From Candidatus Altimarinota bacterium (GTDB taxonomy: Bacteria > Patescibacteriota > Gracilibacteria > BD1-5 > UBA2023), in assembly GCA_041909865.1 (NCBI GenBank), contig JAYRRZ010000060.1, positions 2,928 to 66,927 on the forward strand: a stretch of 64,000 nucleotides of DNA, given 5' to 3'. Made by a program: the position numbers and the translations under genes. Under the pieces are notes generated by a model. It searched no databases and was not told the DNA's origin. It saw only the letters and a program-made list of their open reading frames with translations. This document shows, piece by piece, positions 9,947 through 61,831 of this stretch (position 1 is the first letter of the stretch; every line of letters begins with the position of its first letter).

Positions 9947-10997
9947 CGTTTATGTTCAGGGGCATTCGCTAAATGCCCCCCGCTTTATTCAAGCTGCTAT
10001 ATGTTTCCATATAGACCAGACTATATCATCACCTCTTTAAGAAGAGGGCTGTGCGCTTCCACTACCAATAGCTTGTAGTGTACTCCCTTTAGGGATAGTC
10101 GTTGCACTTTCATTATAACTTTTAAAATTGTAAGAGGCGGAAATAGAAGTGTAAAACTTTCTATTCCTTATATTTCCTACAACCTTTCTATCAACTTCCA
10201 GTTCTTTTGAGATTTCTAAAACACCCTTGCCATTTTCAAGGAGTTCACAAATCTTAATAACTGTTTCAGGAGATGTCATTTCCTTTTTTCTCAGTTTAGA
10301 AAAATCATAACTTGTAGAAATATGTAACCATTGTGGCTTCTGGTTATCTTTTAAATGCTGGATAAACCTGCGATCAAATCCAGTCATCCTAGATACATCG
10401 CAAGCTCTATATCCCTCTGAAAGCATTTGACAGATTTTATGTACATCATCTTCAGTTATGGTTTTGTACCCTACAGGTACTTTCCAATCATGACATATTT
10501 CGTCTTCAGTTGGAATCTTATTTAATTCATGTAAAAATGTAGGCTTTCTGAGTCCATTTTCTATGGCGTGTATAGTGTTCTCTTGTGGTGTAGCCCATTC
10601 CAGATTTTCAACAGAGTTATTTAACTTGTTACCATCTTTATGATTAACTTGTTTCTTACCTTCAGGATTATCAATAAAAACTGTAGCCATAATTCTATGC
10701 AATTTACAGTTTTGATGTACTTTTCCGTGATCGTCTGTCAACGCGAAAATACGATATCCCTCTCTACATACCCATCCGCTAAGAAACCTATTACTCTTTA
10801 AGCTAAAGAGTTTTCCACAATTAGTTACACAATATCCACTAAACCCAATTTCACCTAAATTTTTCAAAATGACATCTCCTACTTATTTCGGAAGTTATAA
10901 TGCTTAGCTCAGGATTGTCTTTGCCATTACGCAGTAAGAGTTTCCCTGAATTCACACAGTTTTCTCACCATCATCGCTAATGGTGGCGGCTAAATTA
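9947..10997 (-). mobile_element. group I intron (1051 nt) with HNH homing endonuclease ORF, in terL
   Basis: 5' splice site CGGU|UAAUUUAGCCG (P1 with G.U), in-frame TAA immediately after the junction, 3' end ..CAUAAACG|AAC; block AGACAAUCCUGAGCUAAGC resembles the T4 td intron AGACAAUCCCGUGCUAAAU as I recall it. Confidence 0.85.
10037..10867 (-). CDS. intron-encoded HNH (HNH_3 / I-HmuI-like) homing endonuclease
   Basis: 276 aa; NHKDGNKLNNSVENLEWATPQENTIHA motif; TTG start with AGGAG 8 nt upstream; lies entirely inside the terL intron. Confidence 0.85.
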   Translation of the reverse strand: MKNLGEIGFSGYCVTNCGKLFSLKSNRFLSGWVCREGYRIFALTDDHGKVHQNCKLHRIMATVFIDNPEGKKQVNHKDGNKLNNSVENLEWATPQENTIHAIENGLRKPTFLHELNKIPTEDEICHDWKVPVGYKTITEDDVHKICQMLSEGYRACDVSRMTGFDRRFIQHLKDNQKPQWLHISTSYDFSKLRKKEMTSPETVIKICELLENGKGVLEISKELEVDRKVVGNIRNRKFYTSISASYNFKSYNESATTIPKGSTLQAIGSGSAQPSS

Positions 10998-12758
10998 ACC
11001 GTAGAGCAGTCTTGCTTTTTCAACGCGCCCAAGAGACTCCAACCAACCAATATATTCTGGTTGAGCTTCCATGAGAACAGGGTTATCCCGGCAAGTAGCA
11101 TTGATGAATGTAAAACTCATCACTACTTCGCGCTTTACGTTGAATTTCTCCATTAACTCTTCTGGAGTATCAGCATAGTGGTTTGTGTTGTCTCTGCGAA
11201 GAAAATAACGTACAACCCCACACCTTTCCTCAATGGGATACCCCTCTTCATCGAGCCACCATGAAATCCAGTTTTTAACCCAAGACTTTGAGTCAGGGTT
11301 CATGGTGCAGCGAACGCGAGGTTTTACTTCAGGGCAAGATGGATTACGCAAGCGGGAAAGAATATAAAGAAACATCTCTTCTTCATATTGAGCGCACTCG
11401 TCAATAAGGCACTCACTGATTTCCATCCCTTGCCAGTTGTCTTTATCCTTCAAATGCTCGAAGTGTCTCAAGTAAACTTCAGCACCAGAGGAGAAACAAA
11501 ACTTATTCTCCATTGACTTAAATCTTACTTTAGGGTCCACCTTTTTAAACATATCCAACGCCTTATCAAGTAGGCCACCCGGACCTTTCAATTGCGTTGT
11601 AGTTCTTCGTGTAAATACACCTCTAAAGTTTTTATGTCTAATGTGAGGCAGAAAGTCCATTACACCAAGGTAGCTTTTACCAGAATTGCCAGTAATCACT
11701 ACCTTGTTATTTCTTCGTGTAACAAACGCCCCAGTAGGGACAGTGAAGCAATATTTGAATCCGTCTTTACTTTTTACAAACTCAAAAACTGCTTTGTCAT
11801 TTATGTTTTCTAGTGTACTGGCAATATTACGGCTTGGTGTTACGTTGTACTCAATACTCTTACGAATATATTCATTATCTTTGTAACCAAGACCTCTACG
11901 ATCATTTATACCAATGCTGGCATGAATATTTTGAATATTATAGAGGTACTGAATACAATCTGCATCTTCTTTAATTGTCGTAGAAAATCTGCCTAGATGA
12001 TTACGACCTTTTGTGAATGATCCATCCCAATACATGATTTCATCGGTGATGTGCTTTGCATCTTCTTTAGAGCAAAGCATCCAGTCAGAAAATCTCTTTG
12101 AGCACCAAGGAGCGTACAAAGTAAAGACAACATAATCGTCTACAGAATTGGTTTCGGTATGAGGATAATTTAATTCCTTCAGAATCCAACGGAGACGCTC
12201 AATCTTACGTTGCTTTTTTAACCGCACAACATAACGTGAAGTTGCAGCAGAGGCGATATGTCCATCACATTTCAAGGCTACAGCGAGCTTGATTTCAAAC
12301 TCACTAAGACCTAGGCGGTTACCATCCTCATATTCATAGACTTTTCTAAAAAACCCTTTATGACCATTTGCAGAAGAATTGTGTTTTTGCATGAACTCCA
12401 TAAAAGGAACTTTGAACATAGTGCCTTTACGGTTTTCATAAACAATGTTATGATCTTCTGAAACCATGTGGTCCAGTTTGGTGTTTTTGATATGATAGAA
12501 GCCGTCACATTCTTTTTTTATGTAAGCAATCGGTGTAACCAGTGTTGCTTTTTTAGTGGAAAGATCAAACTGCATCACCATATCACCGGGGACATATTCA
12601 GAAATCTTTTTCCACCCGTATTGACTAAGGAACTCTGTATCCGCATCAACACATCCGGCTGCGCCGCCGAAAAATACTACATCTGCTGTGGATGTAATAA
12701 ACATTTGTTGTTTGCGAGACTTCGGTCCAATAATCTCTTGTTCTTTTTTCTGCCGCAT
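10998..12758 (-). CDS. terL: terminase large subunit, exon 1 (ATPase domain, contains intein)
   Basis: Walker A split as FFGGAAG|C..intein..N|SGKSY; Walker B CLIDECAQ; ends ..ARLLYG at the splice site. Confidence 0.85.
11685..12653 (-). mobile_element. intein (323 aa) with LAGLIDADG endonuclease, in the TerL P-loop
   Basis: starts CVDADTEFL (Cys1), ends VVITGN followed by Ser+1; internal LAVALKCDGH and DEIMYWDGS = two LAGLIDADG motifs; removal restores GGAAGSGKS. Confidence 0.8.
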
Positions 12759-12909
12759 ATTAAAATTCTCTCCTCTGTCATGGATGCGTCAAAAGATAAG
12801 ATGTAGGAAACCCCCTGACGAGGAGGGCTTATCGAGCGGCCACTCTATCCTACAAATTTGTGCAAATAAGAAATGGAACGGTTTGCTAAAACCGTCCCCT
12901 ACACTTTTA

Positions 12910-12938
12910 ATACTAAGGCATATATTCAGTTTTGTCAA
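12910..12938 (-). promoter_or_regulatory. promoter upstream of terL (conserved promoter-leader class)
   Basis: minus strand ATTGACAAAA (-35 at 12938-12933), 17 nt, TAGTAT (12915-12910), then AAGTGTAGGGGA + hairpin; near-identical architecture at 17660-17688. Confidence 0.65.
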
Positions 12939-12972
12939 TACCTTTTATTGCAAAAATGTTAATATTTTTGAT

Positions 12973-13452
12973 TCAAGGCTTGTTCTTTTGTAAATAGTCA
13001 TCCCATCCCGGAGGGGAGGGCGCTTTTATAAACGCCACCCTGAACACCTTTCCAAACAGTTTTAACCAGTAGAGGTAGTACCAACTGTCTCCTTTTTGAG
13101 TGAGATACCACTTATAAGGGGTAGAAATAGGGGGTAGGACATCTTCCGTGAGATTGTCCAGCACCCACCATTCGTTGCCATCGCGCACGCACAGGACGCA
13201 ATGGCCCTCGCCGGATGGTGTGGCGACGGTGCAGAGGCCGGTGTCAAACCCTGCGGCGGACAGTCTGGTCTGTTTTCCTAGCGCGATGGCTTTGCAGTCG
13301 CCCGTCCCGCCGATGTCGGCAGCCTCCCAGCGGTCAGGACTGGCGCGGTAGCCGATGCTGTTGTTGAGCGTCGTGTTGACGCTATTAAGAAGCGTATTCA
13401 CGAATCCACGCATCCCGAGCCGCGACGGTTGCTGCTTCGTCCCAGTCATCAC
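12973..13452 (-). CDS. BTLCP / LapG-like transglutaminase-fold cysteine protease
   Basis: DRWEAADIGGTGDCKAIALGK ... EGHCVLCV ... VLDN reproduces the Cys-His-Asp arrangement and spacing of bacterial transglutaminase-like cysteine proteinases; start may instead be Met14 (13413); no obvious signal peptide. Confidence 0.6.
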   Translation of the reverse strand: MMTGTKQQPSRLGMRGFVNTLLNSVNTTLNNSIGYRASPDRWEAADIGGTGDCKAIALGKQTRLSAAGFDTGLCTVATPSGEGHCVLCVRDGNEWWVLDNLTEDVLPPISTPYKWYLTQKGDSWYYLYWLKLFGKVFRVAFIKAPSPPGWDDYLQKNKP

Positions 13453-13543
13453 CGGCTTCGTTCAGAACTTGAAACACTTCGCCAGTTTCCATCGACAGGT
13501 GGGCAATTCCCGGAATGTACTCAATACCACGAACGTCTTGCAT
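13385..13543 (-). CDS. small hypothetical protein (52 aa, acidic)
   Basis: not in ORF track (<60 aa); ATG at 13543 preceded by TAAGGAGA; GC-rich coding-like composition; overlaps the start of the BTLCP ORF. Confidence 0.45.
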   Translation of the reverse strand: MQDVRGIEYIPGIAHLSMETGEVFQVLNEAGDDWDEAATVAARDAWIREYAS

Positions 13544-13553
13544 GCTTGTCTCC

Positions 13554-14810
13554 TTAGTTTGCCATCAGGATGCTGCCGCCGGTCGTGCGAGCCGCGTTGC
13601 TGCCGCCGTTGACGATGGCGTAGCGGTAGTAGCGCCACTTCGGGCTGACCACGGCTTCCGCAACATAGCCGCCCCCGGAAATGTTTGTCGCCGTGATGGA
13701 CTGGATAACCCGGAACGTCGAGTTGTCGCGGCTGGCCTGAATCTGAAGCGTAAACGCCACATCTTGCTCGGCCATCACGCGGAACTCCTTCGCGTTTGTC
13801 GATGCACTTGAAAACGCAGAACCTGACGATGTTGCCGTAACATCGCGGGCTGTGGATGTAAATGTGCTGTTAGCGGTAAGTGCCGCTGACGTGTCGTCAT
13901 ACCAGATGCCGGGGGCAAATACGCAACCAGCTCGCGATGTGCTTTGAGTCAATGCAGCAGTCGTAAATGCCGTTACCTGCGCGGCGGAATAGGCGAGCAA
14001 AACTCCGGCAGTACCCGAACCATATGTCGTGCATTTGACTTGAATATGGGTGACTCCCGGAGGGATGTCAAAAACGATCGGTTGGTTTGCTGTGGCAACA
14101 TTGGGCAAATAACCGCCAGTCGATAGGTTTTTCAAATAGCCGGGCGCGATCCACGTCGCGGCATTATCAAACGATATTTGCAACGTAGCGGTTTGCGAAA
14201 ATGTCCCGTAAATATAAAACGTACAGGAACGCGCCCAACCGGGCACAGCAAGTCCTGCACCGCCAGCAGGAAACGTGTCGTTTAGCGCGGCTAAAGCACT
14301 GGCGTTAGATGCTGAATACCCGTCCGGAGTACGGAAATACTGAATGCCCGTGTTATCCGTCAGCAATGTCCGCTTCAGCCCGCCCCCATCAACCCCACTC
14401 ACCCGCACCGCTTGATTTGTCGGTGCTACGCCGTCAGCGGACACGCCGCCGACATAGAACACCCCGTCGCTCGCCCCGGTGACGCTGAGCGAGTTTGCCG
14501 CCGTCTTGGTTCCCTTGAGCGACAGCCAGAAATCCCGCATCCAACGCAAGAACCCGTTCGTCGTGCTCGCCCCGGTGTCGCCAGCAGCCGCAGCAGATGC
14601 GCCGCCGATGCTCGCAAGTTCCGTCACGATGTCGGTGTTTGTCTTGCTCCCGCTCCCCCGCAACGCATCGCGCAATGCAGATAGCGCGATGTCCAAGTTG
14701 TCCGTTTTCGCCTTGATGAGTTCCTGCGTCGCCTCTCCAGCGACTTCGCTTCCGTCCGTGCGGGTAACAGGTATCGTGCGTCCGGTCATGTCATGCCTCC
14801 ACGGCAACAA
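13554..14810 (-). CDS. tail fibre / receptor-binding protein (two beta-sandwich-like repeats)
   Basis: 418 aa, Ala/Gly/Ser/Thr-rich, two similar C-terminal modules (..TATLQISFDNAATW.. and ..FTLQIQASRDNSTF..); high-GC; follows another fibre gene with a 20-nt overlap. Confidence 0.55.
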   Translation of the reverse strand: MLPWRHDMTGRTIPVTRTDGSEVAGEATQELIKAKTDNLDIALSALRDALRGSGSKTNTDIVTELASIGGASAAAAGDTGASTTNGFLRWMRDFWLSLKGTKTAANSLSVTGASDGVFYVGGVSADGVAPTNQAVRVSGVDGGGLKRTLLTDNTGIQYFRTPDGYSASNASALAALNDTFPAGGAGLAVPGWARSCTFYIYGTFSQTATLQISFDNAATWIAPGYLKNLSTGGYLPNVATANQPIVFDIPPGVTHIQVKCTTYGSGTAGVLLAYSAAQVTAFTTAALTQSTSRAGCVFAPGIWYDDTSAALTANSTFTSTARDVTATSSGSAFSSASTNAKEFRVMAEQDVAFTLQIQASRDNSTFRVIQSITATNISGGGYVAEAVVSPKWRYYRYAIVNGGSNAARTTGGSILMAN

Positions 14811-16017
14811 GCCACATCAGGGCCGCGCCGTCATATAGATATTGAGTTCGTTGGTTGGCGTTGGTCTCGTCCGCCGTGACGACATAAAGCCGTGGCTCAG
14901 CGAGGCCGGTCGTGTTGATGTCGGCGAAATGCGTGACGGTGACGGCCTCCAGCGAGGACGTGCCGGGATCGGCAGGGGTATCAACAATGATGAGGTTGGT
15001 CTTGCCGCTGATGAGCTTGACGTACTGCCCGGCCCGCGTGGTCTTGCCGTGGAAATAGCCCCCGGCGCTGACCTCGTACCAGTCGTTGTCGAGAGCGCCA
15101 ACCGGCAGGGTAGCGTTTGTTATCGTCCCAAAACCACTCCGCCCGCCTGTAGTATCTGAAAGGTTAAAGCTGACCGTCGAGGCAGCAAAAACCACCGTGC
15201 TGGAGGCGGATTGCGTCAACACCATCAACTTGATCGTGTCCCCCGGCGGGAATGATCCGACATCCAGCGTAAACGGGCCGACCGTGGTCGAGCCGACTTG
15301 TAGCGTGATGTCGTTTGTTGTTGGATCAAGGCGCAAGTAAGACACATCACCGGCAACCACCGCCCCCGCGTTTCCGCCGGTAATGGTCCCGCTGTTGTAG
15401 ATAACGAGGCCGGCGTACGGATACGCGAGCACGCCGGAGGCTTCGACGGCAATTGCTGCATATGTGGGGTTTGCTGGCGTATTGCCTGCGATAAAATCCC
15501 TGACATCCGAAATGGTTGCCGACGAGTTGCACAGAACGAGATAGTGCAAGTTGACGGTATCTCCCGGCGTGTACGCTGGCATCGGCATGGATGCCTGCAT
15601 GACATTTGTTCCGATGGTTAGCGCCGATGTTTCAACACCTGCTATGTACGGTATGCCGACGCCGGGAATTGTGCCGTCAGGCGTCATGGTCGTGGGCGTG
15701 TACGTTGCCGCTTGGGACGCTGATGGCGCGGCAGGAACAAACACGCCGGAGGACATGTCCCACTCTCCCTTATATTGCCCAGAATAAGCAATATCTACAG
15801 AAACATCTCCAGAAGAATCGGTTCCACTAATACCATCTCCAGTAAAATTCAAAGATTTAATATTAGCGGGAGAAGATAGATTAACCCCATTTTCTTTAAC
15901 TTGGATCAAACTTCCATCTTGACCGGCATCCCCTTTTGCTCCACTAGCAAATGTACTCGCTTGCGGGATTTCAAGCGTAATTTCTTGAGAAACAATATTC
16001 AGAATTGTCTTAGCCAT
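14791..16017 (-). CDS. tail fibre protein, mosaic (low-GC N-terminal anchor + high-GC distal part)
   Basis: 408 aa; N-terminus with a collagen-like GAKGDAGQDG triplet run; composition switches from AT-rich to GC-rich near 15770. Confidence 0.6.
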   Translation of the reverse strand: MAKTILNIVSQEITLEIPQASTFASGAKGDAGQDGSLIQVKENGVNLSSPANIKSLNFTGDGISGTDSSGDVSVDIAYSGQYKGEWDMSSGVFVPAAPSASQAATYTPTTMTPDGTIPGVGIPYIAGVETSALTIGTNVMQASMPMPAYTPGDTVNLHYLVLCNSSATISDVRDFIAGNTPANPTYAAIAVEASGVLAYPYAGLVIYNSGTITGGNAGAVVAGDVSYLRLDPTTNDITLQVGSTTVGPFTLDVGSFPPGDTIKLMVLTQSASSTVVFAASTVSFNLSDTTGGRSGFGTITNATLPVGALDNDWYEVSAGGYFHGKTTRAGQYVKLISGKTNLIIVDTPADPGTSSLEAVTVTHFADINTTGLAEPRLYVVTADETNANQRTQYLYDGAALMWLVAVEA

Positions 16018-16423: not shown

Positions 16424-16508
16424 TTTGTGCTGACATTCAATTGATGTCATTGAATAAAATGCCGCTAGAGAGGGAGACGGCTATTTATTATTATACGTGT
16501 AAACAGAG

Positions 16509-16892
16509 TTACACAGCTTTGTTATTATCCACTACAAGAGAATATGTGAATTTGGCTGGAGCGGGAGAAAGATCATCACTTTCATCTTCATCGTTCTTAT
16601 TATCCACGCCAGCCTTTTCAAGCTGCTTGTCCAGCAATTCCAGCTTTTTAGCCAGTTCCGTTTGGCGATCCACTTCCTTAATCATATTCGATGTAGTTTG
16701 AACAATCCATGTAGCAGCTTTCATGCGAGACGTGGTGTCAGCCTCTTCATCCCGCATAACATCCTTGATAAAATTGATGGCGTATTCAGCCTCTTTACCA
16801 AGGATTTTAGCAAACTTCGTGAGGTCTGCCTTGCCCAACACTTTAGCACGTTTCACCGAAGGGACTTTATCGGCTACAATTGGAGCACTCAT
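16509..16892 (-). CDS. hypothetical protein (possible small terminase / DNA-binding; weak)
   Basis: 127 aa, basic N-terminus, coiled-coil, acidic tail; SD AGGAGAA; first ORF after the long leader; the TerS idea rests only on a SRMKAATWIV-type helix and is weak. Confidence 0.5.
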   Translation of the reverse strand: MSAPIVADKVPSVKRAKVLGKADLTKFAKILGKEAEYAINFIKDVMRDEEADTTSRMKAATWIVQTTSNMIKEVDRQTELAKKLELLDKQLEKAGVDNKNDEDESDDLSPAPAKFTYSLVVDNNKAV

Positions 16893-16966
16893 GCTATTCT
16901 CCTATTTATTTTTCTAATTTATTATTGTTACGTTTATACGTTAAATGTGAAGAAGTAACGTAGAAT

Positions 16967-17046
16967 TGGAACACTTCTTGAGGGACTCGAACCCACATTG
17001 CCAAGCGTCACGCTATAGGTATCCTACCGTTAGATGAAAGAAGTGT
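16967..17046 (-). ncRNA. tRNA-like element (acceptor, D and T arms, encoded CCA; no canonical anticodon arm)
   Basis: minus strand ACACTTC(TT)..ATCT-AACGGTA-GGAT..GTGGG-TTCGAGT-CCCTC..(AA)GAAGTGT-T-CCA; 7-9 bp acceptor stem, GG in D loop, TTCGAGT T-loop; the middle 23 nt only form AGCG-TGA-CGCT. Confidence 0.45.
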
Positions 17047-17659
17047 AATTATGTGCATAACTCTTCACCGCTACCTACGTTCGGGAGAGGATTCATGCTA
17101 ATAAGAAGGCCCAAAGATTTGCGCTTGCAGACAGAGGCGTATGGGCCAGATTCTTCAAAAACAATTAAACCTTAAAATTTTAGATAAATATACCACTTTT
17201 TCTAAAATTTTAATTAAAATAATCCCCACGTAAGCAGATGAGCCAAGAGGTGGGGGCCGTATTGTACGCGCAATACCCCAGTCTTACCGGCGACGAGGTG
17301 CTGCCATTCTTCTAGACCGTAGGTAAAGAAGAAACACCGCATGTAAAACTTTTAATAACCCCATGCTTGCTGCCCTATTAAGGATGAGCAGGAACTCCAA
17401 GTCCGCAGCGTTTGACAATACACCCATCCTGAGTGTAGCCTTGCTGAGCGGATCATTGCAAGGTCTTGAGTATTGTGCCACAGGATGCGAACCCTGCTTG
17501 CTGGCTTTACGACTCTCGCTAGGGAGAGTATCCAGCTTCTGTCACGCAGTAGTGTATCGCCTACACATTTTACACAATATTTGTGGGGTAGAACAATCGT
17601 CTAAAAATGTTAACAAACGTAACACTCAATGTTCGTCAGAACATTCCCCTACACTTCCA

Positions 17660-19796: not shown

Positions 19797-19966
19797 ATAA
19801 TAAATTGACCAATGTATCTATCTCCTTCGGAGACAATGTATTTCTTCTCCCACAACGTATCTTGTGATCCATACAAGCACACAATCTTGTGTTTTATATT
19901 GTCTTGACGAAGACCACTCTTATCCTCATCAAGAAAAAGAGAAGCAAATTGTTTGAATGTTAGCAT
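19784..19966 (-). CDS. hypothetical protein
   Basis: start taken at MLTFKQ (19966), 7-nt overlap with upstream stop. Confidence 0.45.
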   Translation of the reverse strand: MLTFKQFASLFLDEDKSGLRQDNIKHKIVCLYGSQDTLWEKKYIVSEGDRYIGQFIIWKK

Positions 19967-20226
19967 TCTTTCCTCTCCGCTTCCCATCTTTGCTTCGCAA
20001 ACAAGAAAATCAGCTTGTTGAAGAACAAGCATTCTTCATCACCAGAAATAGTTCCACACTCACAACATTCGTTGTAATACAATCCTTCTTCAACAGAATA
20101 CAATTCCTCTCCACAGGAGAGGTGTTCTTTCAAGTTGAGTGTGATGTTATCTACCTCATACACTCTAACTAAACTCTTGTGTCCGCACACAGGACACAAT
20201 GTATCCCTCTTTAATGGAAAGTTCAT
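19960..20226 (-). CDS. zinc-ribbon protein
   Basis: 88 aa, CPVCG ... CCECG; first gene after promoter 20257-20285. Confidence 0.5.
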   Translation of the reverse strand: MNFPLKRDTLCPVCGHKSLVRVYEVDNITLNLKEHLSCGEELYSVEEGLYYNECCECGTISGDEECLFFNKLIFLFAKQRWEAERKEC

Positions 20227-20256
20227 CTCTATTCCCTATACACAACACATATTCCT

Positions 20257-20285
20257 ACTGTATTACACACAACAATTGTTGTCAA
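20257..20285 (-). promoter_or_regulatory. sigma70-type promoter (leftward) with palindromic spacer
   Basis: minus strand TTGACA (20285-20280), 17 nt, TACAGT (20262-20257); spacer contains the perfect palindrome ACAACAATTGTTGT. Confidence 0.55.
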
Positions 20286-20318
20286 TAGGAAGTTACAAAG
20301 AATTACAATAGTATATAT

Positions 20319-20365
20319 TGTACAGCATGGTGCTGTACACAAGACACATGTTGTGCAAAGCACAA
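20319..20365. promoter_or_regulatory. conserved control element: TGTACAGCA-N3-TGCTGTACA palindrome + TTGTGCAAAGCACAA hairpin
   Basis: repeated with the same order and spacing at 40382-40426; the hairpin alone is also at 32410-32423. Confidence 0.6.
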
Positions 20366-20671
20366 AGAGCGATACAAGAACAACAGTGTTGTGTAGGGAA
20401 CTTTTCTTGAAGTAATCCTCGGCGAACTTCGTTCGTCGGAGAATTGTCTGACAAGAATAGTGGAGCTATGAATGTAACAAGAGATGTGTTTCTTTTATTT
20501 AATTTATAAAATAATTCTTATTGTCATGTTTGTATGTAGGGCGGTGAGCGGTAGCTCAGAAGGTATTCTTAAATTCTCTTCTCTCTACTTCTAAGAGGAG
20601 AGGCTGGAAAGCCTTGTCTCCCAAGGGTTTCAATTTTTGAGATATCTGAGTTCAGATACAACACTCCTCTA

Positions 20672-20700
20672 TTGACACATGTAAAACTTGATGTTATCAT
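20672..20700 (+). promoter_or_regulatory. sigma70-type early promoter (rightward)
   Basis: TTGACA (20672-20677), 17 nt, TATCAT (20695-20700); 43 nt upstream of the ATG at 20743 with SD AGGAGG. Confidence 0.65.
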
Positions 20701-20742
20701 AAAAAAAAAAAGCGACAGACAGGAACTACTCTAGGAGGAAAA

Positions 20743-31784: not shown

Positions 31785-32284
31785 ATGAACAAAGTATATG
31801 CTGGAGTTGGGAGCAGGGAGACACCCCTCATGTCTTGGAGAAGATGAGGAAGATAGGGAAATATCTTGCAGAGCAAGGATGGGTGTTGCGTAGTGGAGGG
31901 GCTATAGGAGCAGATAGCGCCTTTGAGCAAGGTTGTGACAGTGGAAGGGGGAAGAAAGAAATCTTCTATGCTAGTAATAACAAGGGAAAGATTGTTACAG
32001 ATAAAAATGTATGGGAAGAAGCAGCGAAGCTGGCAGAGGGGATACATCCCGCACGGGAGAAGTGTAATGAGTATGCTAGGAAACTACACAGCAGGAATTG
32101 TTTTCAAGTGATGGGAGGGGATTTATGTTCTCCAGTATCCCTCCTCATTTGTTGGACAAAGAATGGGAAAGCCAGTGGAGGGACAGCAACTGCAATTAAT
32201 CTTGCTTTAAGAAACAATATCCCTGTGTACAACTTATTCTTCGATAACACCCTTCAAGAACTTAGAAATATTTTATTAAAATAA
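31785..32284 (+). pseudogene. DprA/Smf-like SLOG (Rossmann) protein, interrupted by a -1 frameshift at a C4 run
   Basis: ATG 31785 with SD GGAGGG gives MNKVYAGVGSRETP then a stop after 20 codons; the -1 frame continues PHVLEKMRKIGKYLAEQGWVLRSGGAIGADSAFEQG to 32284; joined at CCCC (31824-31827) they give the full GSR...SGGA.G.D signature. Confidence 0.6.
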
Positions 32285-32294
32285 TTATTTTGTA

Positions 32295-32315
32295 TCCTCA
32301 AGGATGAGGGATTTT
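32295..32315 (+). terminator. rho-independent terminator closing the rightward early operon
   Basis: TCCTCA-AGGA-TGAGG(G) followed by ATTTT. Confidence 0.5.
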
Positions 32316-32349
32316 CCGCCGAAAGCAGGGCTTTCATTTCAAATATCTC

Positions 32350-33087
32350 TTTCAACGCAAGTTGAAATATCTGTACTCATTGAAACGTCAACGTTTCATG
32401 TCATCTCTTTTGTGCGAAGCACAGCATGTATGTTCTTGTGTGGGCGTTATTAGGGATGGGTGATACCTTTTAAGGGGTGTGCAAAATGAGCCGTTGGCTC
32501 AAGTGGTGATAAGCACGAAGGGATGGCGGCATCTCTCACTCTTCTGTGATCCTAAAATATCCTGACTACCTACCCTCTCCAATGCCCCTCATTCACGCGC
32601 CAGCGCGTCATTTACCCTGTCCATTGGCTGTGCCAATACATTCCCCCATCCTAGACGTGGTTACGTCTAAAACGGCCTTTTCTGAGCGTTTCCTCGCTTG
32701 GCGTAGTGCTCAATGGCATCATATGCCAGCGAAGGGAATACTTTGACGTTTCACGTCAGAATTGTGACATTCCATTGCAAAGCAATGGGGTTGGCATACT
32801 CTTTGCCATGCTGGCATGAGGGGAGGAATTGATAGCGAAGCTGTCGGGGAGAGTGTTCCACGTGAAACAATGAGGCCTTTCGGCTGGCTTGAATGATATA
32901 TAGGGTGCGATGCTTAACACTACCCACAAACCGGGGTACCCCTCCCTGTTAATCCACTCTGTCCTACGGACATCAATTACCTATCTCAGCCCATTAGCCT
33001 GCACACTATTTCTAATGCTATCGTTGACGATAGCGGCATTCCCTTTCAGTCCTACGGACTAACATTCTCCCCTACATGCTACGCATG
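32350..33087. other. array of about 18 unrelated short perfect hairpins / palindromes in ORF-free DNA
   Basis: 4-7 bp stems with 3-4 nt loops at 32350, 32381, 32411, 32487, 32595, 32623, 32652, 32714, 32744, 32772, 32804, 32831, 32874, 32961, 33017, 33048, 33075 (details in findings). Confidence 0.8.
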
Positions 33088-33135
33088 AAGTGATTACATG
33101 CCAAACATTTACACCACACAATGACACACTCAACA

Positions 33136-33227
33136 CTGTAACATCCATTACAATAATGTAACACCCACTACATAACACCCATTACAGAATGAGACAATGG
33201 GTAATGTAACATTCTATAATGTAACAC
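33136..33227 (+). repeat. iteron cluster (A)ATGTAACA(C/T) x4 with interleaved CCATTACA repeats
   Basis: CTGTAACAT 33136, AATGTAACAC 33155, AATGTAACAT 33203, AATGTAACAC 33218; CCATTACA at 33145, 33179, 33264. Confidence 0.7.
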
Positions 33228-33289
33228 TATTTTCTTGTATCCCTAGCATTGACCGTTTTTTAACCATTACAAAACATCGAAAGAAACTG

Positions 33290-33318
33290 TTGACATAGGG
33301 AAAGGGATATTCCATACT
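33290..33318 (+). promoter_or_regulatory. possible promoter antisense to the end of the leftward island
   Basis: TTGACA 33290-33295, 17 nt, CATACT 33313-33318; no ORF downstream, faces terminator 33381-33409. Confidence 0.35.
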
Positions 33319-33380
33319 AGCTTTAAGACGGAAATCCGGGGAGACAATCACTACCCATGCGTGATTGTTATGGAATACAA

Positions 33381-33409
33381 GAAAAGAAAAAGCCGGATGT
33401 TAGTCCGGC
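33381..33409 (-). terminator. rho-independent terminator closing the leftward island
   Basis: minus strand GCCGGA-CTAACA-TCCGGC followed by TTTTTCTTTTC. Confidence 0.7.
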
Positions 33410-33433
33410 CTTCTCTCTCTCTTTCCCCCTCCC

Positions 33434-33628
33434 TTATTCCCAAATTCCTACCTGAATCTTAGCAGCGTAAATCGCCGCCTTGAGGGTCAGGTAGAACCCT
33501 TCGACGGTTCCATAACCATAACTGCCGTAAAAGCCATCCATCTTGATCACTTCGTAGCCTTCGCCAGATGTGACAACAATGACCAAGCTGCTATTGTTTT
33601 CAATCGTGAAGATCACATCCATTTTCAT
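33434..33628 (-). CDS. hypothetical protein (64 aa)
   Basis: SD GGGGGG/AATG region, terminator downstream. Confidence 0.5.
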   Translation of the reverse strand: MKMDVIFTIENNSSLVIVVTSGEGYEVIKMDGFYGSYGYGTVEGFYLTLKAAIYAAKIQVGIWE

Positions 33629-33839
33629 TTCCCCCCTATCGGCTCATGCCGTGTTGTTGATAGCTCTAATCCTAGGCGATAGCTAAAAGCATGTCAAACA
33701 CTCTTCTCAATTTTCTTGCATGGCGTTTAAACGCTCAGAAAGGCCCATTCCTGCCTTGCATCGCTACGGATGGGCCAATGTACTAGCACAAATGACAAAG
33801 CCACTAAAAAGGGGCTTGTAAGCGTTTCTAGACGTGTTT

Positions 33840-36258: not shown

Positions 36259-36889
36259 CTTCTTTCCCCTTGTCGGCTTGTGCCGTGTTTTGATGATTTG
36301 CATTGTAGGGGAGGGGGAAAGGGGAGTCAATAACCTATCTTGTCAATTTGGGCCAATGTAACTTTTTTCTCTCTCCCCTCCCTTGCTAGGGCGAAGCAGA
36401 CAAGGGCGCAAGCCTGGCAAGCGATTTTTCCTTCTATATGCTGGCTTTTGTCGGCTGGCTATCTGGCATAGCCTAAAGCTATCAAAATTTGCATATGCAG
36501 ATAGCATGCCAACAATTCAAAAACCCGCGATCTTTATTTTTATAGGCTAGGGTACTGCCTGACGCCAGAACGCCTAAAAAGGGCCGTAGAACGCGTTTAA
36601 ACGCATATTGTTAAATGATGACAGAATGATACTTGGCATGGATGCTGCATAACGTGAATGGATGACACTAACAATTGTACCATTGTGCAATGTCATATAG
36701 GAAACGGATAGCTAGGGATAAAATAATATAGCTGGAATGGATGCAATGAGGGAGTGAATAGCTAGCTTGCTATCAAATCAGGGACATTAGGGACGAAAGC
36801 TGGACCATTTAACATGCCGCGCCACTAGCTAGGTGTCTATCTATCATGTTCCGGCTAATTTGATTTTCCTTTGTTTTTAAAAAGTGCTT

Positions 36890-36950
36890 GTGTCAAAAAT
36901 TTTCTAGGATTTTGAGTGAGTGGAAAACACGAACGAAAAATCATCCCCCC
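36890..36950 (+). repeat. 61-bp direct repeat, copy 1
   Basis: GTGTCAAAAATTTTCTAGGATTTTGAGTGAGTGGAAAACACGAACGAAAAATCATCCCCCC; 60/61 identical to 39990-40050. Confidence 0.9.
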
Positions 36951-36967
36951 CCTAGTCTTAAAATTCC

Positions 36968-39574: not shown

Positions 39575-39989
39575 CTTGTGTTCCTCGCTTGTGCGTTGTG
39601 TTGATAAGCGAATGATATAGCCCTTCCCTTGATATAGCAAGCGGAAAGCACAAGCTAGAATGTAACAGATTGTAAACGATAAAACAGGGTTAGGCATATA
39701 TAGAAGAAATTGCCCGCCTAGCGTCCAATACGCTTAAACGCTCAGAAATGCGATTTAAGCCTGTTTGATAGGGGAAAGGCTACAAGGGTAGGGGGAAGGA
39801 GGAGAAAAGGGCAGGAAAGGCCCATAGAAGCGATTTTAGAGCTATTCCGCTATGGCTGGCGGTAGCATTGTCTGGAGCAACACACATTAGGGATGATTTC
39901 TCAAAGAATTTAACATTCCCCGCCACCCTCTTTCCTTGTCGCCGCCCCTTGCGGCTGATTTGAAATCCCCTCTTTTCAAAAAATCCCTC

Positions 39990-40050
39990 GTGTCAAAAAT
40001 TTCCTAGGATTTTGAGTGAGTGGAAAACACGAACGAAAAATCATCCCCCC
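39990..40050 (+). repeat. 61-bp direct repeat, copy 2
   Basis: 60/61 identical to 36890-36950, exactly 3100 bp to the right. Confidence 0.9.
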
Positions 40051-40381
40051 TATAAGAGAAATTCCCTCTTGTCCTCACGGACAAAACACAACATTCTTGC
40101 TGTTCCAGCAAAGCTACACACAAAACAACAAATGTAAAAGCATTACAAGAAACACAACACAAAGCGACAGCTTTAAAAGCAATACACAAAACCATTGATA
40201 CAACAAACAATGAAATGTGTATGTATTATTGACAAGCATTGCTTGTCAGCAGAACACAAGCATTCCTACGGAATGAATTGTACACATCTTTAATTCAGGG
40301 ATTTGAAAATCTTTCCTCAAAAATATCTGGTATTAAAATATCCCTAAAAATATCCCACATGAAATATTGAATGGGATATAT

Positions 40382-40426
40382 TGTACAGCATGTGCTGTAC
40401 ATGGGAGGATGTTGTGCGAAGCACAA
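40382..40426. promoter_or_regulatory. conserved control element: TGTACAGCA-N2-TGCTGTACA palindrome + TTGTGCGAAGCACAA hairpin
   Basis: second copy of the element at 20319-20365; preceded by the TGACAAGCA-T-TGCTTGTCA palindrome (40231-40249) and the CATTCC-TAC-GGAATG hairpin (40261-40275). Confidence 0.6.
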
Positions 40427-40641
40427 AATATACTCTTCTTTAAAAGAAGGGTCTTCGTGCGGCTTTCCGCACAAGTGGGGACAACGTATGCGGAGCATAC
40501 AATGTAACATGATTGAAATTTGTTGTGAATTTCAACTAAGGGTTGAATTTGTTAGATAGGATGTAATCAAGAAAGGTTGTGTTTGTTCTTCTTTATTTAT
40601 ATATTTTCTGTTCTATTATCTAATAACTAACCTTTAATGGT

Positions 40642-40702
40642 GTGCAACTATTGCACCATGCCTAAGTGCAACCATTGCACTATGAACGTGCAGGATTTGC
40701 AC
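40642..40702. promoter_or_regulatory. three tandem palindromic operators GTGCAA-N3-TTGCAC
   Basis: GTGCAACTATTGCAC 40642, GTGCAACCATTGCAC 40666, GTGCAGGATTTGCAC 40688; spacing 24 and 22 bp; just upstream of promoter 40740. Confidence 0.7.
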
Positions 40703-40739
40703 TATGCCCCGTTCTTTACTTTGTGTTACAAAGTACTTC

Positions 40740-40768
40740 TTGCTTTATTTCATATACAGCTTTATACT
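40740..40768 (+). promoter_or_regulatory. sigma70-type promoter of the rightward replication module
   Basis: TTGCTT, 17 nt, TATACT; preceded by palindrome TACTTTGT-GTT-ACAAAGTA (40715-40733). Confidence 0.55.
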
Positions 40769-40802
40769 GAATGTAGGAGGGGAATTATACGGAGATACAA
40801 CA

Positions 40803-60187: not shown

Positions 60188-61831
60188 TTGTTTGATTTTA
60201 TCAAAGTAAGAGCTATTGGCGTAACGCAGCCGTTGATTGATGAGATTCCAGATAGCGAAGGGATTCTGTCCTTCGCCGCAAGAGTGAGCAACCAAAGTAA
60301 TCAAACTAATTTTGATACAGCAGATAAACTGCTTGGGTATTGTGCAAAACATTCACATTGGAGTGTTTTTGAGACGTGTAGCATTACAATGGAGATTGAA
60401 GCCCCACGTGATATTTGTCGTCAAATCTTGCGTCATCGAAGTTTTAGTTTTCAAGAGTTCTGTGTGGCCAGTGGTACGAAAATATCTACAGTTGTAGGGG
60501 GAACAGTAAAGAAAGTTAAAATAGAAGACCTATATAAGAGGTTCAAATCAAAGCAGTACTGGTCTAAATCGGAGAATTTAGTAAGAGTTTTTGATGAAAA
60601 TACTGGGATGCTCACTTCTGCAAAAATCAAGGAGGTCTTCGACACAGGTATTAAGCCAGTTTATCGGCTAACATTAGACAACGGAAAGACCATTGATGCT
60701 ACCGCCGAGCATAAGTTTTTAACAAAAGAGGGATTTAAAAGGTTAGCAGACATTACAGACAACGATTTTGTGGGATGCAATGGTGTTCCTATCTATCAGA
60801 CGCTTGAGTGGTTATATGAGGCCAAGATGGAGGCTATCGAGAATGGTACAGGGGTGCAAGGAATGGCAGAAAAAGCCGGGGTCAGTTACCATACTATTCG
60901 TAAATGGTTGCGTAAAAACAACCTACAATTTACAAAGGCGCAAGTGGCAATGTATACAGACGCATGGAACAATGGCGCTTCTAGAGAATCTCAACCCCGT
61001 TACGGAAAAACCGTAAGTGAGTCTACACGCGACAGAATGCGCTTTTCATCTAAAAAGGGAGAGAATTGTGTATTGTTTTCGTCTGGCAAGCGCAGACCTT
61101 TTGCCTTAGAGGTTCGTGACTACTGGTATAAGCGGAAGAATTATCTCTTCAAGAAGTTTAAGGGGGTTTGTGCAGAAACCGGAAAGGTTTGCGAGTATAA
61201 TGACATCTCTATAGACCATATTCTTCCTTTGTCTAAGTTTCCTGAAAAGGCTTATGATGAGGATAATATACAGATTCTTTCTAAGAAAGAGCATTTTGCA
61301 AAATCCGCTAAGGAGACATCTGTCCGTGGGTTGACAGCAAGTTGGCATAAGGTTGTTTCGGTTGAATTTGTAGGTGAGATTCAAACATATGATATGGAGA
61401 TTGAGCATTCCTCCCACAACTACGTTGCTAACGGAATCATCACACACAATAGTCAGCGATATGCTGAAGCTACTGATTTTTGTTACCGCAGCCCCAGATT
61501 TCAAGACCACAAAAACAGACAAAACAGTATTCCAACAGACGATCTAGACATCTCTGCATGGTGGGCAAGGCAGCAAAAACAAGTAATAGATGTCGTGCTT
61601 GGTGCATATCAGGATGCCTTGAGTAAAGGTATTGCAAAAGAAGTTGCGCGAGCGCTGTTGCCAGAAGGGCTGACAATGAGTAAGATGTATATGCAAGGAA
61701 GTGTTCGTAGCTGGATGCACTATATTCAACTACGCTCTGAAAATGGAACTCAATTAGAACATCAAGATGTAGCATTGAAATGTCGGGAGGAGTTTATCAA
61801 GCTATTCCCTTCTTTGGAGAAGTATGTATGA
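60188..61831 (+). CDS. thyX: flavin-dependent thymidylate synthase ThyX (precursor containing an intein)
   Basis: ThyX signature split as RHRSFSFQEF|intein|SQRY; mature extein about 217 aa; TTG start. Confidence 0.85.
   Translation: MFDFIKVRAIGVTQPLIDEIPDSEGILSFAARVSNQSNQTNFDTADKLLGYCAKHSHWSVFETCSITMEIEAPRDICRQILRHRSFSFQEFCVASGTKISTVVGGTVKKVKIEDLYKRFKSKQYWSKSENLVRVFDENTGMLTSAKIKEVFDTGIKPVYRLTLDNGKTIDATAEHKFLTKEGFKRLADITDNDFVGCNGVPIYQTLEWLYEAKMEAIENGTGVQGMAEKAGVSYHTIRKWLRKNNLQFTKAQVAMYTDAWNNGASRESQPRYGKTVSESTRDRMRFSSKKGENCVLFSSGKRRPFALEVRDYWYKRKNYLFKKFKGVCAETGKVCEYNDISIDHILPLSKFPEKAYDEDNIQILSKKEHFAKSAKETSVRGLTASWHKVVSVEFVGEIQTYDMEIEHSSHNYVANGIITHNSQRYAEATDFCYRSPRFQDHKNRQNSIPTDDLDISAWWARQQKQVIDVVLGAYQDALSKGIAKEVARALLPEGLTMSKMYMQGSVRSWMHYIQLRSENGTQLEHQDVALKCREEFIKLFPSLEKYV
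60461..61450 (+). mobile_element. intein (330 aa) with HNH endonuclease and HTH, in the ThyX active-site motif
   Basis: starts CVASGTKI, block B TAEHKFLT, ends NGIITHN followed by Ser+1; internal DISIDHILPLSKF...NIQILSKKEH (HNH) and GVSYHTIRKWLRKN (HTH). Confidence 0.85.

Follow-up and report, generated by a model that had tools for sequence, protein, structure and literature searches.

Several described systems resemble parts of a gene-free gap in a 64,000-nucleotide stretch of phage DNA (contig JAYRRZ010000060.1; the whole stretch is called the window below), in which an array of short and mutually unrelated hairpins lies at 32316–33130 between two convergent early operons. Small hairpins of the type known from phage N4 extrude and function as DNA; N4 itself has a virion polymerase of 3500 amino acids (aa) and, close to one of its genome ends, three promoters of a common consensus. 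The early promoters of N4 and the hairpins of the window are alike in their stems of 5–7 base pairs (bp) and loops of 3 nucleotides (nt), some of which are purine-centred G-N-A loops. The window array differs in consisting of 17 unrelated sequences that share no flank consensus beyond a tendency toward pyrimidines on the 5′ side and purines on the 3′ side.

In phage T5, untranslated repeat region 3, or iss, is a conserved, palindrome-rich, and unexplained untranslated region, as is the window gap; the T5 region (1.2–1.6 kb) lies at the inner edge of the long terminal repeat, and the window gap is likewise tied to a terminal repeat, in its case by position. The inverted repeats of T5 iss are long (131 bp) and are accompanied by repeated families and eight ordered DnaA boxes, whereas the palindromes of the window array are 13–18 bp long, all different, and periodic, with one DnaA-like box only; the two phage families are unrelated. 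Bidirectional or clustered intrinsic terminators are also stem-loops with 3–4 nt loops that occupy convergent intergenic regions and are usable from both strands (PMC8355165). In contrast to these, the array has no U- or A-tracts and spreads 17 hairpins over 800 nt instead of placing 1–3 within 80 nt of a stop codon. REP elements are extragenic palindromes between convergent genes that form families of one sequence, unlike the all-different stems of the array. The large RNAs GOLLD and ROOL (Rfam) are similar in size class, phage location, and absence of open reading frames (ORFs), whereas the array has no covariance-model match, long-range fold, strand preference, or adjacent tRNAs. Non-coding hairpins of organelles populate intergenic DNA and keep their stems while the loops flip to the reverse complement between close relatives. 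The hairpin elements of sponge mitochondrial DNA are one organelle example (PMC2800124). Organelle hairpins differ in that they are usually single hairpins of 3′ untranslated regions, or families of related mobile ones, and not a periodic phage array.

The Felixounavirus gap (Felix O1, Pr103Blw, and UAB_69) resembles the window gap in being the single gene-free convergent gap (1.1–1.7 kb) of related phages and in its enrichment in TGTTA(A/C) boxes. Mapped genome ends and a direct terminal repeat (DTR) of 581–618 bp lie inside the Felixounavirus gap, whereas the gap of the window phage is likened to it by position and motifs alone. Furthermore, Felix O1 has phased boxes and no hairpin excess, whereas the window phage has few boxes and approximately 17 hairpin units. 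In a limited literature search, we found no phage terminal region described as carrying a periodic array of mini-hairpins that covary and are unrelated to one another. We conclude that the array is a genuine, conserved structure, so far without explanation, and that it occupies a locus of a known type.

Geometry and conservation of the hairpin array

A count of perfect stems with 3–4 nt loops between 32316 and 33130 gave 16 of 5 bp or more, including 10 of at least 6 bp and 5 of 7 bp. The means for stems of at least 5, 6, and 7 bp in dinucleotide-shuffled sequences were 1.6, 0.41, and 0.10, respectively, and none of 2000 shuffles reached any of the observed counts; the window-wide mean was 3.1 stems (at least 5 bp) per 815 bp. 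These counts bear out the excess over chance claimed in an initial annotation of this DNA, and all 16 hairpins listed there are present. Some details changed. The hairpin given as GTCC-TAC-GGAC at 32961 exists but is really the 5-bp TGTCC-TAC-GGACA at 32960. The tally of five 6-bp stems is correct when the unlisted hairpin at 32321 is included, and the 7-bp stems number five (32350, 32381, 32652, 32772, and 33017) and not four. The CC-TAC-GG core, which had been assigned to three hairpins, occurs in two of them and recurs at 40261, and the third hairpin (33075) has GC-TAC-GC. Similarly, TGTGC-GAA-GCACA recurs at 40412 as described, whereas the copy at 20351 has the loop AAA and not GAA.

The array as a whole (32316–33090) comprises approximately 19 short palindromes or stem-loops, and every stem sequence is different. 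The centre-to-centre spacing is 27–31 nt in 11 of the 16 intervals and 60 nt in two more, the linkers are mostly 12–15 nt long, and 11 of the 17 hairpins have loops of 3 nt. The linkers are biased toward pyrimidines just 5′ of the stem, where G is absent at positions −1 and −2, and toward purines just 3′ of it. It is fairly secure that, in this phage clade, units of about 29–30 nt make up the left two thirds of the gap, each unit consisting of a perfect 5–7 bp palindrome with a 3–4 nt centre and a linker of about 14 nt. Near-identical repeats such as those of CRISPR or type III antitoxin RNA arrays are absent, the units being all different, and no CRISPR-DR or ToxI-type Rfam family matched the gap at E ≤ 10. 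A search for long inverted repeats gave none. Boxes of the DnaA-like form TTWTNCACA were not enriched, with one in the gap and 12 in the window against 9.1 expected. When the array is taken together with the two other hairpin zones of the window described below, the closing pair is 5′C..G3′ in 24 hairpins and G..C in 6 (binomial p = 0.0014), a bias that is expected of folded single strands and not of duplex protein sites.

Relatives of the gap were recovered with flanking proteins from both sides as handles and by a single metagenome scan. These were the same phage (L021, 99.8% identical), a partial variant (L014), a variant across the whole gap (L019, approximately 80% identical), and a variant on an 81.5-kb contig obtained by the metagenome scan (L022). 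A further sequence from that scan, L023, was rejected as an unrelated chance match. L014 is identical to the window until 32503, just past the hairpin at 32487, and is of the L019 type thereafter; therefore, the region is a recombination mosaic. No DNA match was found in 50,697 phage records by megablast or blastn, four exact window patterns scanned against IMG/VR gave no relatives, and the GTDB genomes contained no DNA match to the gap. Homologues of the DprA-like neighbour of the array occur in IMG/VR at 42–55% identity, and none of them has a hairpin field beside the gene.

The hairpins stay in register across four variants at about 20% divergence, and 15 and 17 hairpins are found in L019 and L022, respectively, against a shuffle mean of about 1.6. 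Across the four variants, 94% of the stem cells are paired. Compensatory substitutions in relatives, which the initial annotation had suggested looking for, do occur: nine pairs have changed on both sides, whereas none of 500 shuffles reached nine and slid controls gave at most four. Between the window and L019, the stems differ at 13% of positions, the linkers at 28%, and the loops at 35% (stems versus linkers, Fisher p = 1.4e-5); at the linker rate, only about 2% of the 6-bp stems would be expected to remain intact. Four pairs of loops are reverse complements of each other between variants (TCAA/TTGA, CCAG/CTGG, GAT/ATC, and CAT/ATG). It is fairly secure that pairing, and not sequence, is under purifying selection. 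The comparison of the variants shows that the array evolves by unit duplication, loop inversion, and recombination and that the hairpins are tolerated in both orientations.

The covarying stems, together with some invariant linkers and a phage-borne non-coding region of about 0.8 kb, are features that one large ornate non-coding RNA of the GOLLD or ROOL kind would also have, and such an RNA was among the roles first proposed for the gap. However, Rfam gave no match at the gathering score in the 64-kb window and nothing relevant at E ≤ 10 in 32200–33500, and no tRNA or tmRNA gene was found near the gap. The two strands fold equally well, with z values against shuffles of −4.6 (plus) and −4.4 (minus). 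The linkers alone (557 nt, with the hairpins cut out) gave z values of −0.28 (plus) and −1.1 (minus) and thus fold like shuffles; therefore, all of the excess structure is local. These results show that the hairpins are independent local stem-loops and not pieces of one large fold. Single-side transitions produce G.U pairs that fall, depending on the hairpin, on either the plus or the minus strand and so assign no strand, no promoter is recognisable in front of the array, and a strand-specific RNA would poorly tolerate the flipping of loops to their reverse complements. In favour of a large fold, RNAalifold draws nested long-range helices, one of which (GCCAGC with GCTGGC) co-varies in L014; this is weak evidence, and we did not rely on these helices. 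We regard a single ornate RNA as highly improbable.

Position of the gap and distribution of hairpin fields

The window encodes an E-type major capsid protein, a Mu-like portal, TerL, PhoH, and a ClpP-like protease, as well as a T7-type primase-helicase, PolA, an exonuclease, methylases, and ArdA. The closest cultured relative, and the sole close one, is Pseudomonas phage vB_PsaM_M1 (M1; classified in Ounavirinae), with a PolA identity of 53%. The identities to Felix O1 or M1 are 41% for the portal, 34–55% for TerL, and 27–39% for the sheath and capsid. It is fairly secure that the phage is a distant Felix O1-like myovirus.

The hairpins lie in the single large gene-free convergent gap of the window (32285–33433). 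The gap had been described as free of ORFs, and this description stands: the longest ORF encodes 66 aa, and gene callers predicted nothing in the gap on three independent contigs. It also still holds that the annotated genes do not explain the array. Felix O1 has exactly one comparable gap, at 12305–13928 (1.6 kb, genes 23/24), and the convergent gene-free gap of M1 is at 16473–17340. The Felix O1 gap contains approximately 30–32 TGTTA(A/G) boxes phased at 11 bp, an array that the Felix O1 genome paper (2010) does not mention.

A megablast search of all phage records with the Felix O1 gap showed that records with determined termini start inside this gap. Position 1 of Pr103Blw is within the gap, and its bases 1–581 are annotated as a short direct terminal repeat, in agreement with a PhageTerm result (PMC8303462). 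In UAB_69, the two convergent genes enclose a 618-bp DTR that is bordered on either side by about 0.5 kb of unique non-coding DNA. The sequence at the Pr103Blw end is GCCCCCTTAACAttttcTTAACAatttcTTAACA, after which direct boxes follow. Three inverted boxes are located exactly at the mapped left genome end, and 19 of the 27 boxes in the first 1.3 kb are within the repeat. The density of TGTTA[ACG] is 7.0 per kb in the window gap and 1.4 per kb elsewhere, a 5-fold enrichment (8-fold in Felix O1); the boxes of the window gap number approximately 6–8, without 11-bp phasing. The gaps of the window, M1, and the contigs L001, L012, and L015 have several short motifs in common, such as GGCTC-N4-GGTGtTAAGC, ATCCTrAAATATCC, and a hairpin followed by TTAAA. 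By positional homology only, we identify the window gap as the putative terminal-repeat and packaging region of the phage. The replication or packaging origin proposed at first is supported indirectly, and as a matter of locus, the gap being a positional counterpart of the Felixounavirus terminal gap that is enriched in TGTTAA-type boxes. No terminal overlap was found for the L001 contig in the exact-pattern IMG/VR scan, and the M1 record, the ends of which are arbitrary, has no terminal repeat. Long tandem arrays of 11–12 bp units were observed inside the homologous gap of two more distant relatives, L012 (10800–11068) and L015 (5930–6000), with CTACCTTCCCT present four times, GATAGAGGGGTT at least eight times, and GGAAGATACCCT at least six times; the contigs stop there.

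The array thus occupies the slot of the 11-bp phased, protein-type boxes of Felix O1, and its units are regularly spaced, as might be the case if the hairpins were sites or decoys for a structure-specific or palindrome-binding protein (for example, a restriction enzyme, a host nuclease that is Cas6-like or of another kind, a nucleoid protein, or the small subunit of the terminase). Conservation of the sequence itself is seen in the YCC-TAC-GGR hairpins, which also have a copy at 40261, and anti-restriction genes (ArdA and two methylases) sit in the early operons flanking the array. However, stems that all differ and covary freely fit no single sequence-specific protein, the closing-pair bias favours folded strands over duplex sites, and the Rfam search described above matched no CRISPR-repeat or antitoxin RNA family. 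We consider protein sites or decoys to be very unlikely.

Hairpin fields coincide with all three strand-switch regions of the window. Two zones, both of them divergent gaps, are as dense as the convergent array: approximately 19960–20740, with 14 stems against 2.2 in shuffles, and 39990–40800, with 13 stems against 2.9 (0 of 200 shuffles in each case). The exact GCGAAGC core is present in all three zones. Of the 100 stems of at least 6 bp in the window, 27 fall in 3.7 kb of non-coding zones. The unidirectional non-coding segment at 36260–36960 contains no stems (shuffle mean 1.78). Among the gaps of other phages, that of M1 has 8 stems (shuffle mean 2.2; 0 of 200 shuffles reach 8), those of L001 and L015 have 2 stems each (shuffle means 2.85 and 1.48, respectively), and that of Felix O1 has 8 stems (shuffle mean 6.2).

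Hairpin richness is therefore lineage-specific, being found in the window clade and M1 and not in L001, L015, or Felix O1, which is consistent with hairpins that arise as a by-product of DNA synthesis. In terminal DNA free of constraint, template switching or snap-back synthesis would make short inverted copies, arm-to-arm correction would keep them perfect, and the hairpins would have no function. The occurrence of loop flips and the coming and going of units are in line with such an origin. Moreover, the 3′ arm of the hairpin at 32487 (GGCTC) is conserved as plain sequence, without the 5′ arm, in the distant relatives L001 and L015, and the 5′ arm resembles an inverted copy of this partnerless sequence. 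However, arm-to-arm correction alone would leave the substitution rate unlowered, yet the stems change at half the linker rate. The hairpin register is kept despite the divergence of the variants, a regular spacing of 27–31 nt is unexpected from random events, the 5′C..G3′ bias points to selection for stability, and 36260–36960 is also non-coding but free of hairpins. A functionless by-product is thus quite unlikely in our judgement.

Proposed action of the hairpins

We infer that transcription or unwinding of the DNA brings the hairpins into action. Our preferred reading, which we hold tentatively as a distinct possibility, is that they are orientation-independent stem-loops in read-through transcripts of both convergent early operons. 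The hairpins would act only when the region is single-stranded, in either orientation. Stem-loops would fold in the read-through transcripts from the two operons, and the folded RNA would pause or stop RNA polymerase and cap 3′ ends and would also keep transcription and sense-antisense pairing out of the terminal-repeat and packaging-box segment. Because both strands would be read, perfect Watson-Crick palindromes alone would serve both directions.

The flanking terminators noted in the initial annotation are present, at 32296–32315 and, on the minus strand, at 33419–33382. The rightward early operon ends at the first of these, a terminator-like hairpin on the plus strand (CCTCA-AGGA-TGAGG followed by TTTT) that is identical in four variants. 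It is weak, with a 5-bp stem and four T, and therefore read-through is likely. The leftward island ends at the second, a strong intrinsic terminator (33382–33419, minus strand). A scan for intrinsic terminators within the array found only 32410–32424, and this weakly; the true terminators are at both edges of the array. In all three zones, the strand that carries the G-N-(N)-A loops is the sense strand of the nearer operon (− − − + +, + + − − − − −, and − − + − + +), which is suggestive of a loop polarity that tracks the nearer operon.

Several points weigh against action in transcripts. The hairpins have no U-tracts and are thus not canonical terminators, and as 1–3 hairpins would suffice for termination or 3′ capping, 17 look excessive. 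Published hairpin-cluster terminators are mostly pairs located no more than 80 nt from a stop codon (PMC8355165). The loops are 3 nt long in 11 of the 17 hairpins, and several are of the GNA type, including that of GCGAAGC. The GCGAAGC hairpin is especially stable as DNA. In the zone at 19960–20740, most hairpins lie upstream of the sigma-70 promoter at 20676 and hence outside its transcript. The strong minus-strand terminator at 33382–33419 should let little leftward transcription into the array, and the gaps of Felix O1, L001, and L015 are without hairpin excess. The loop polarity rests on 18 loops with switch points picked post hoc, and it fits a lagging-strand template equally well if forks run with transcription. 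Finally, the homology to the Felix O1 gap consists of position and short motifs, with no nucleotide alignment between the gaps.

In the main rival explanation, to which the same reasoning would apply, the hairpins form in single-stranded DNA (ssDNA), on whichever strand is exposed at a genome end or fork. Possible settings are the 3′ tails left by a T7-like 5′-3′ exonuclease as terminal repeats anneal into concatemers, the lagging-strand template, and extrusion by supercoiling as at the N4 promoters; the folded hairpins would protect, mark, or prime the DNA for the replisome or terminase. The stems of 5–7 bp with mostly 3-nt loops have N4-type geometry, the exact GCGAAGC core occurs in three zones, and 5′C..G3′ closing pairs are favoured. 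The stems are perfect Watson-Crick stems with hardly any wobble and no strand bias, and loop flips and unit duplications take place at the level of DNA, as is typical of hairpin-forming sequence. The linkers are shorter than the binding site of SSB. The phage encodes a T7-type primase-helicase, PolA, and an exonuclease, and the locus is by its position a terminal-repeat region, where both strands become single-stranded. The loop polarity fits a lagging-strand template under the same assumption on fork direction as above.

In regards to the evidence against ssDNA hairpins, neither of the two other hairpin zones sits at a genome end, and Felix O1, whose ends are of the same kind, lacks the hairpin excess. 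Convergent transcription should give positive supercoils in the gap, which would oppose extrusion. There is no N4-like virion polymerase in the 64-kb window, in which the largest ORF encodes 689 aa and which covers all but approximately 16 kb of the 80,445-bp contig. Hairpin promoters and ssDNA signals had been named together in the first proposal; the geometry and the GCGAAGC core fit these roles, and neither a promoter consensus nor an ORF of N4 polymerase size was found in the window. We consider ssDNA hairpins to be somewhat doubtful as the explanation. A more specific proposal is that, in this lineage, periodic DNA mini-hairpins of N4-like geometry, GCGAAGC among them, would be a novel sequence-independent and structure-only cis element of phage genome ends and would have replaced the array of 11-bp protein boxes of Felix O1. 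They would fold on either strand at a resected, unwound, or cut repeat and would be required for concatemers, priming, or terminase. This replacement is speculative and, in our estimate, unlikely.

Individual units, flanking features, and significance

The individual units illustrate the changes described above. At the left end, GAAAGC-AGG-GCTTTC (32321–32335) is kept in L014 and L022 (loop AGA) and lost in L019. The stem of TTTCAAC-GCAA-GTTGAAA (32350–32367) is invariant, and the loop is GTGA in L019; GCAA and GTGA are both GNRA loops on the plus strand. In L022, the loop of TGAAACG-TCAA-CGTTTCA (32381–32398) is TTGA, the reverse complement of that in the window, and an extra 28-nt unit (TTGTCG-TTGA-CGACAA) follows directly after this hairpin, with a loop and closing pair that copy those of its neighbour. 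TGTGC-GAA-GCACA (32411–32423), which contains the GCGAAGC core and has the two copies mentioned above, is invariant in four variants. The recombination junction between the window and L014 lies just 3′ of TGAGCC-GTT-GGCTCA (32487–32501). Farther right, an unstructured C-rich linker contains the motif ATCCTAAAATATCC (32549–32562), which recurs in the gaps of L001, L012, L015, and M1. Boxes resembling AAAATATCC were observed as four repeats at 40296–40362, in the divergent gap near 40 kb, and once in the hairpin gap (32549–32562).

The loop of ACGCG-CCAG-CGCGT (32595–32608) is flipped to CTGG in L014. Two compensatory pairs convert ATTGGC-TGT-GCCAAT (32623–32637) to ACAGGC...GCCTGT in L019 and L014, and the loops of this hairpin across the variants are TGT, CCT, GAT, and ATC, the last two being reverse complements. 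In TAGACGT-GGTT-ACGTCTA (32652–32669), an A-T pair is changed to G-C by compensation (AGGCGT...ACGCCT) in three variants with differing loops; this hairpin is a possible counterpart of CATAAT-GGTC-ATTATG followed by TTAAA in M1, L001, and L015. The adjacent linker, AAACGGCCTTTTCTGAGCGTTTCCTCGCTTGGCGTAG (32670–32706), is near-invariant in four variants, and its core recurs at 33729 and 39736. The motif AAACGCTCAGAAAGGCC is found three times, at 32675–32691 (minus strand), 33729–33745 (plus strand), and 39736–39752 (plus strand), against 0.17 expected by chance, and one copy falls within this most conserved linker of the array. A search for the linker motif ACATTCCCC with 2 mismatches was too permissive to be informative.

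The hairpin TGGCAT-CAT-ATGCCA (32714–32728) is CGGCAT-CAT-ATGCCG in L022, CGGCAT-ATG-ATGCCG in L019 (a loop flip), and CCCTGCA-CAA-TGCAGGG in L014, whereas TGACGT-TTC-ACGTCA (32744–32758) is invariant in four variants. Single-side transitions in CCATTGC-AAA-GCAATGG (32772–32788) have created G.U pairs, which for L019 and L022 are on the plus strand and for L014 on the minus strand. At the place of TGCCA-TGC-TGGCA (32804–32816), L019 has TTGCGT-GAT-ACGCAA with the register kept. GATAGC-GAA-GCTGTC (32831–32845), which contains one G.T, is a perfect GATAGC-GGG-GCTATC in L019 and L022. Two imperfect hairpins, TGTTCC-ACGT-GAAACA and GGCC-TTTC-GGCT, occupy 32854–32885; the first is perfect in L022 (TGTTCC-ACGT-GGAACA), and the second is AGCC-TTTC-GGCT in the other variants. 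TGTCC-TAC-GGACA (32960–32972) is kept in L014 amid diverged flanks, and the L019 version pairs on the minus strand only, with a G.U. GCTATCG-TTGA-CGATAGC (33017–33034) is GCTATCG-TTC-CGATAGC in L019. The pair AGTCC-TAC-GGACT and CATGC-TAC-GCATG (33048–33087) is identical in L019, and L022 has here a non-homologous replacement sequence that again contains perfect hairpins with 3–4 nt loops (ATGACC-CTT-GGTCAT and others). An additional unit, GGTCT-TTC-AGACC, is present in L019.

TGTAACA boxes (read as TGTTAC on the minus strand), of the type that also fills the terminal repeat of Felix O1, form a cluster at 33130–33230, to the right of the array. The cluster is identical in the window and L019; of its boxes, L022 shares just the two that lie from about 33203 onward. 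On the plus strand, 33191–33318 contains two promoters of sigma-70-like type, GAGACA-18-TATAAT and TTGACA-17-CATACT. The window, L019, and L022 all conserve the second promoter (33290–33318) and, of the first, the −10 box; the −35 box of the first is conserved in the window and L019 only. From its sequence, the plus-strand segment 33325–33419 may encode a small transcript of approximately 90 nt, with a hairpin (CAATCAC...GTGATTG) and an end at the shared terminator hairpin. This segment has one substitution among the variants, whereas the identity of the neighbouring 64-aa gene in L019 is no more than 71%. The block 33130–33430 as a whole is near-invariant between the window and L019, and L022 matches it from about 33203 on; its layout recalls a small RNA beside iterons, such as lambda oop at ori.

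The two divergent gaps have a module of about 80 nt in common (20305–20370 and 40368–40428), composed of ATATTGTACAGCATG(G)TGCTGTACA, approximately 11 nt, and GTTGTGC(G/A)AAGCACAAA, and an AT-rich tract, TGTGTTT(C/G)TT..TTTATTTA, lies about 150 nt downstream of it. The half-site CTGTACA forms two palindromes in the M1 gap as well (16632 and 16883). The module may be a common regulatory or origin-like element. At 40642–40706, three tandem operator-like palindromes of the form GTGCAA-N3-TTGCAC are spaced at 22–24 bp, just upstream of the promoter TTGCTT-17-TATACT that heads the replication operon.

Other features were observed elsewhere in the window. An island of 54–58% GC at 13000–16000, in a genome of 41% GC, contains two minus-strand ORFs of about 410 aa (13554–14810 and 14791–16017) that have no Pfam match. 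The N-terminal region of the TerL ORF (10995–12758, minus strand) matches PHROGs labelled PhoH or RNR, and the thymidylate synthase ORF (60188–61831, plus strand) is split by a segment resembling an HNH endonuclease, which suggests inteins or other insertions in these core genes. A direct repeat of 102 nt (36849–36950 and 39949–40050; 85% identical) is located at the upstream ends of two leftward gene clusters, and the Logan contig behind L021 stops at its first copy.

The non-coding terminal regions of DTR phages, such as the short repeats of T7, the iss of T5, and the boxes of Felix O1, are conserved and essential, and almost none of them is understood. Such regions break metagenomic assemblies, act as recombination junctions between phage lineages, and escape gene- and Rfam-based annotation. 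In related phages, the same genomic slot holds phased sequence boxes in one and periodic hairpins conserved only in their pairing in the other. This difference is a natural experiment on whether a genome end needs RNA or ssDNA structure rather than protein-binding sequence.

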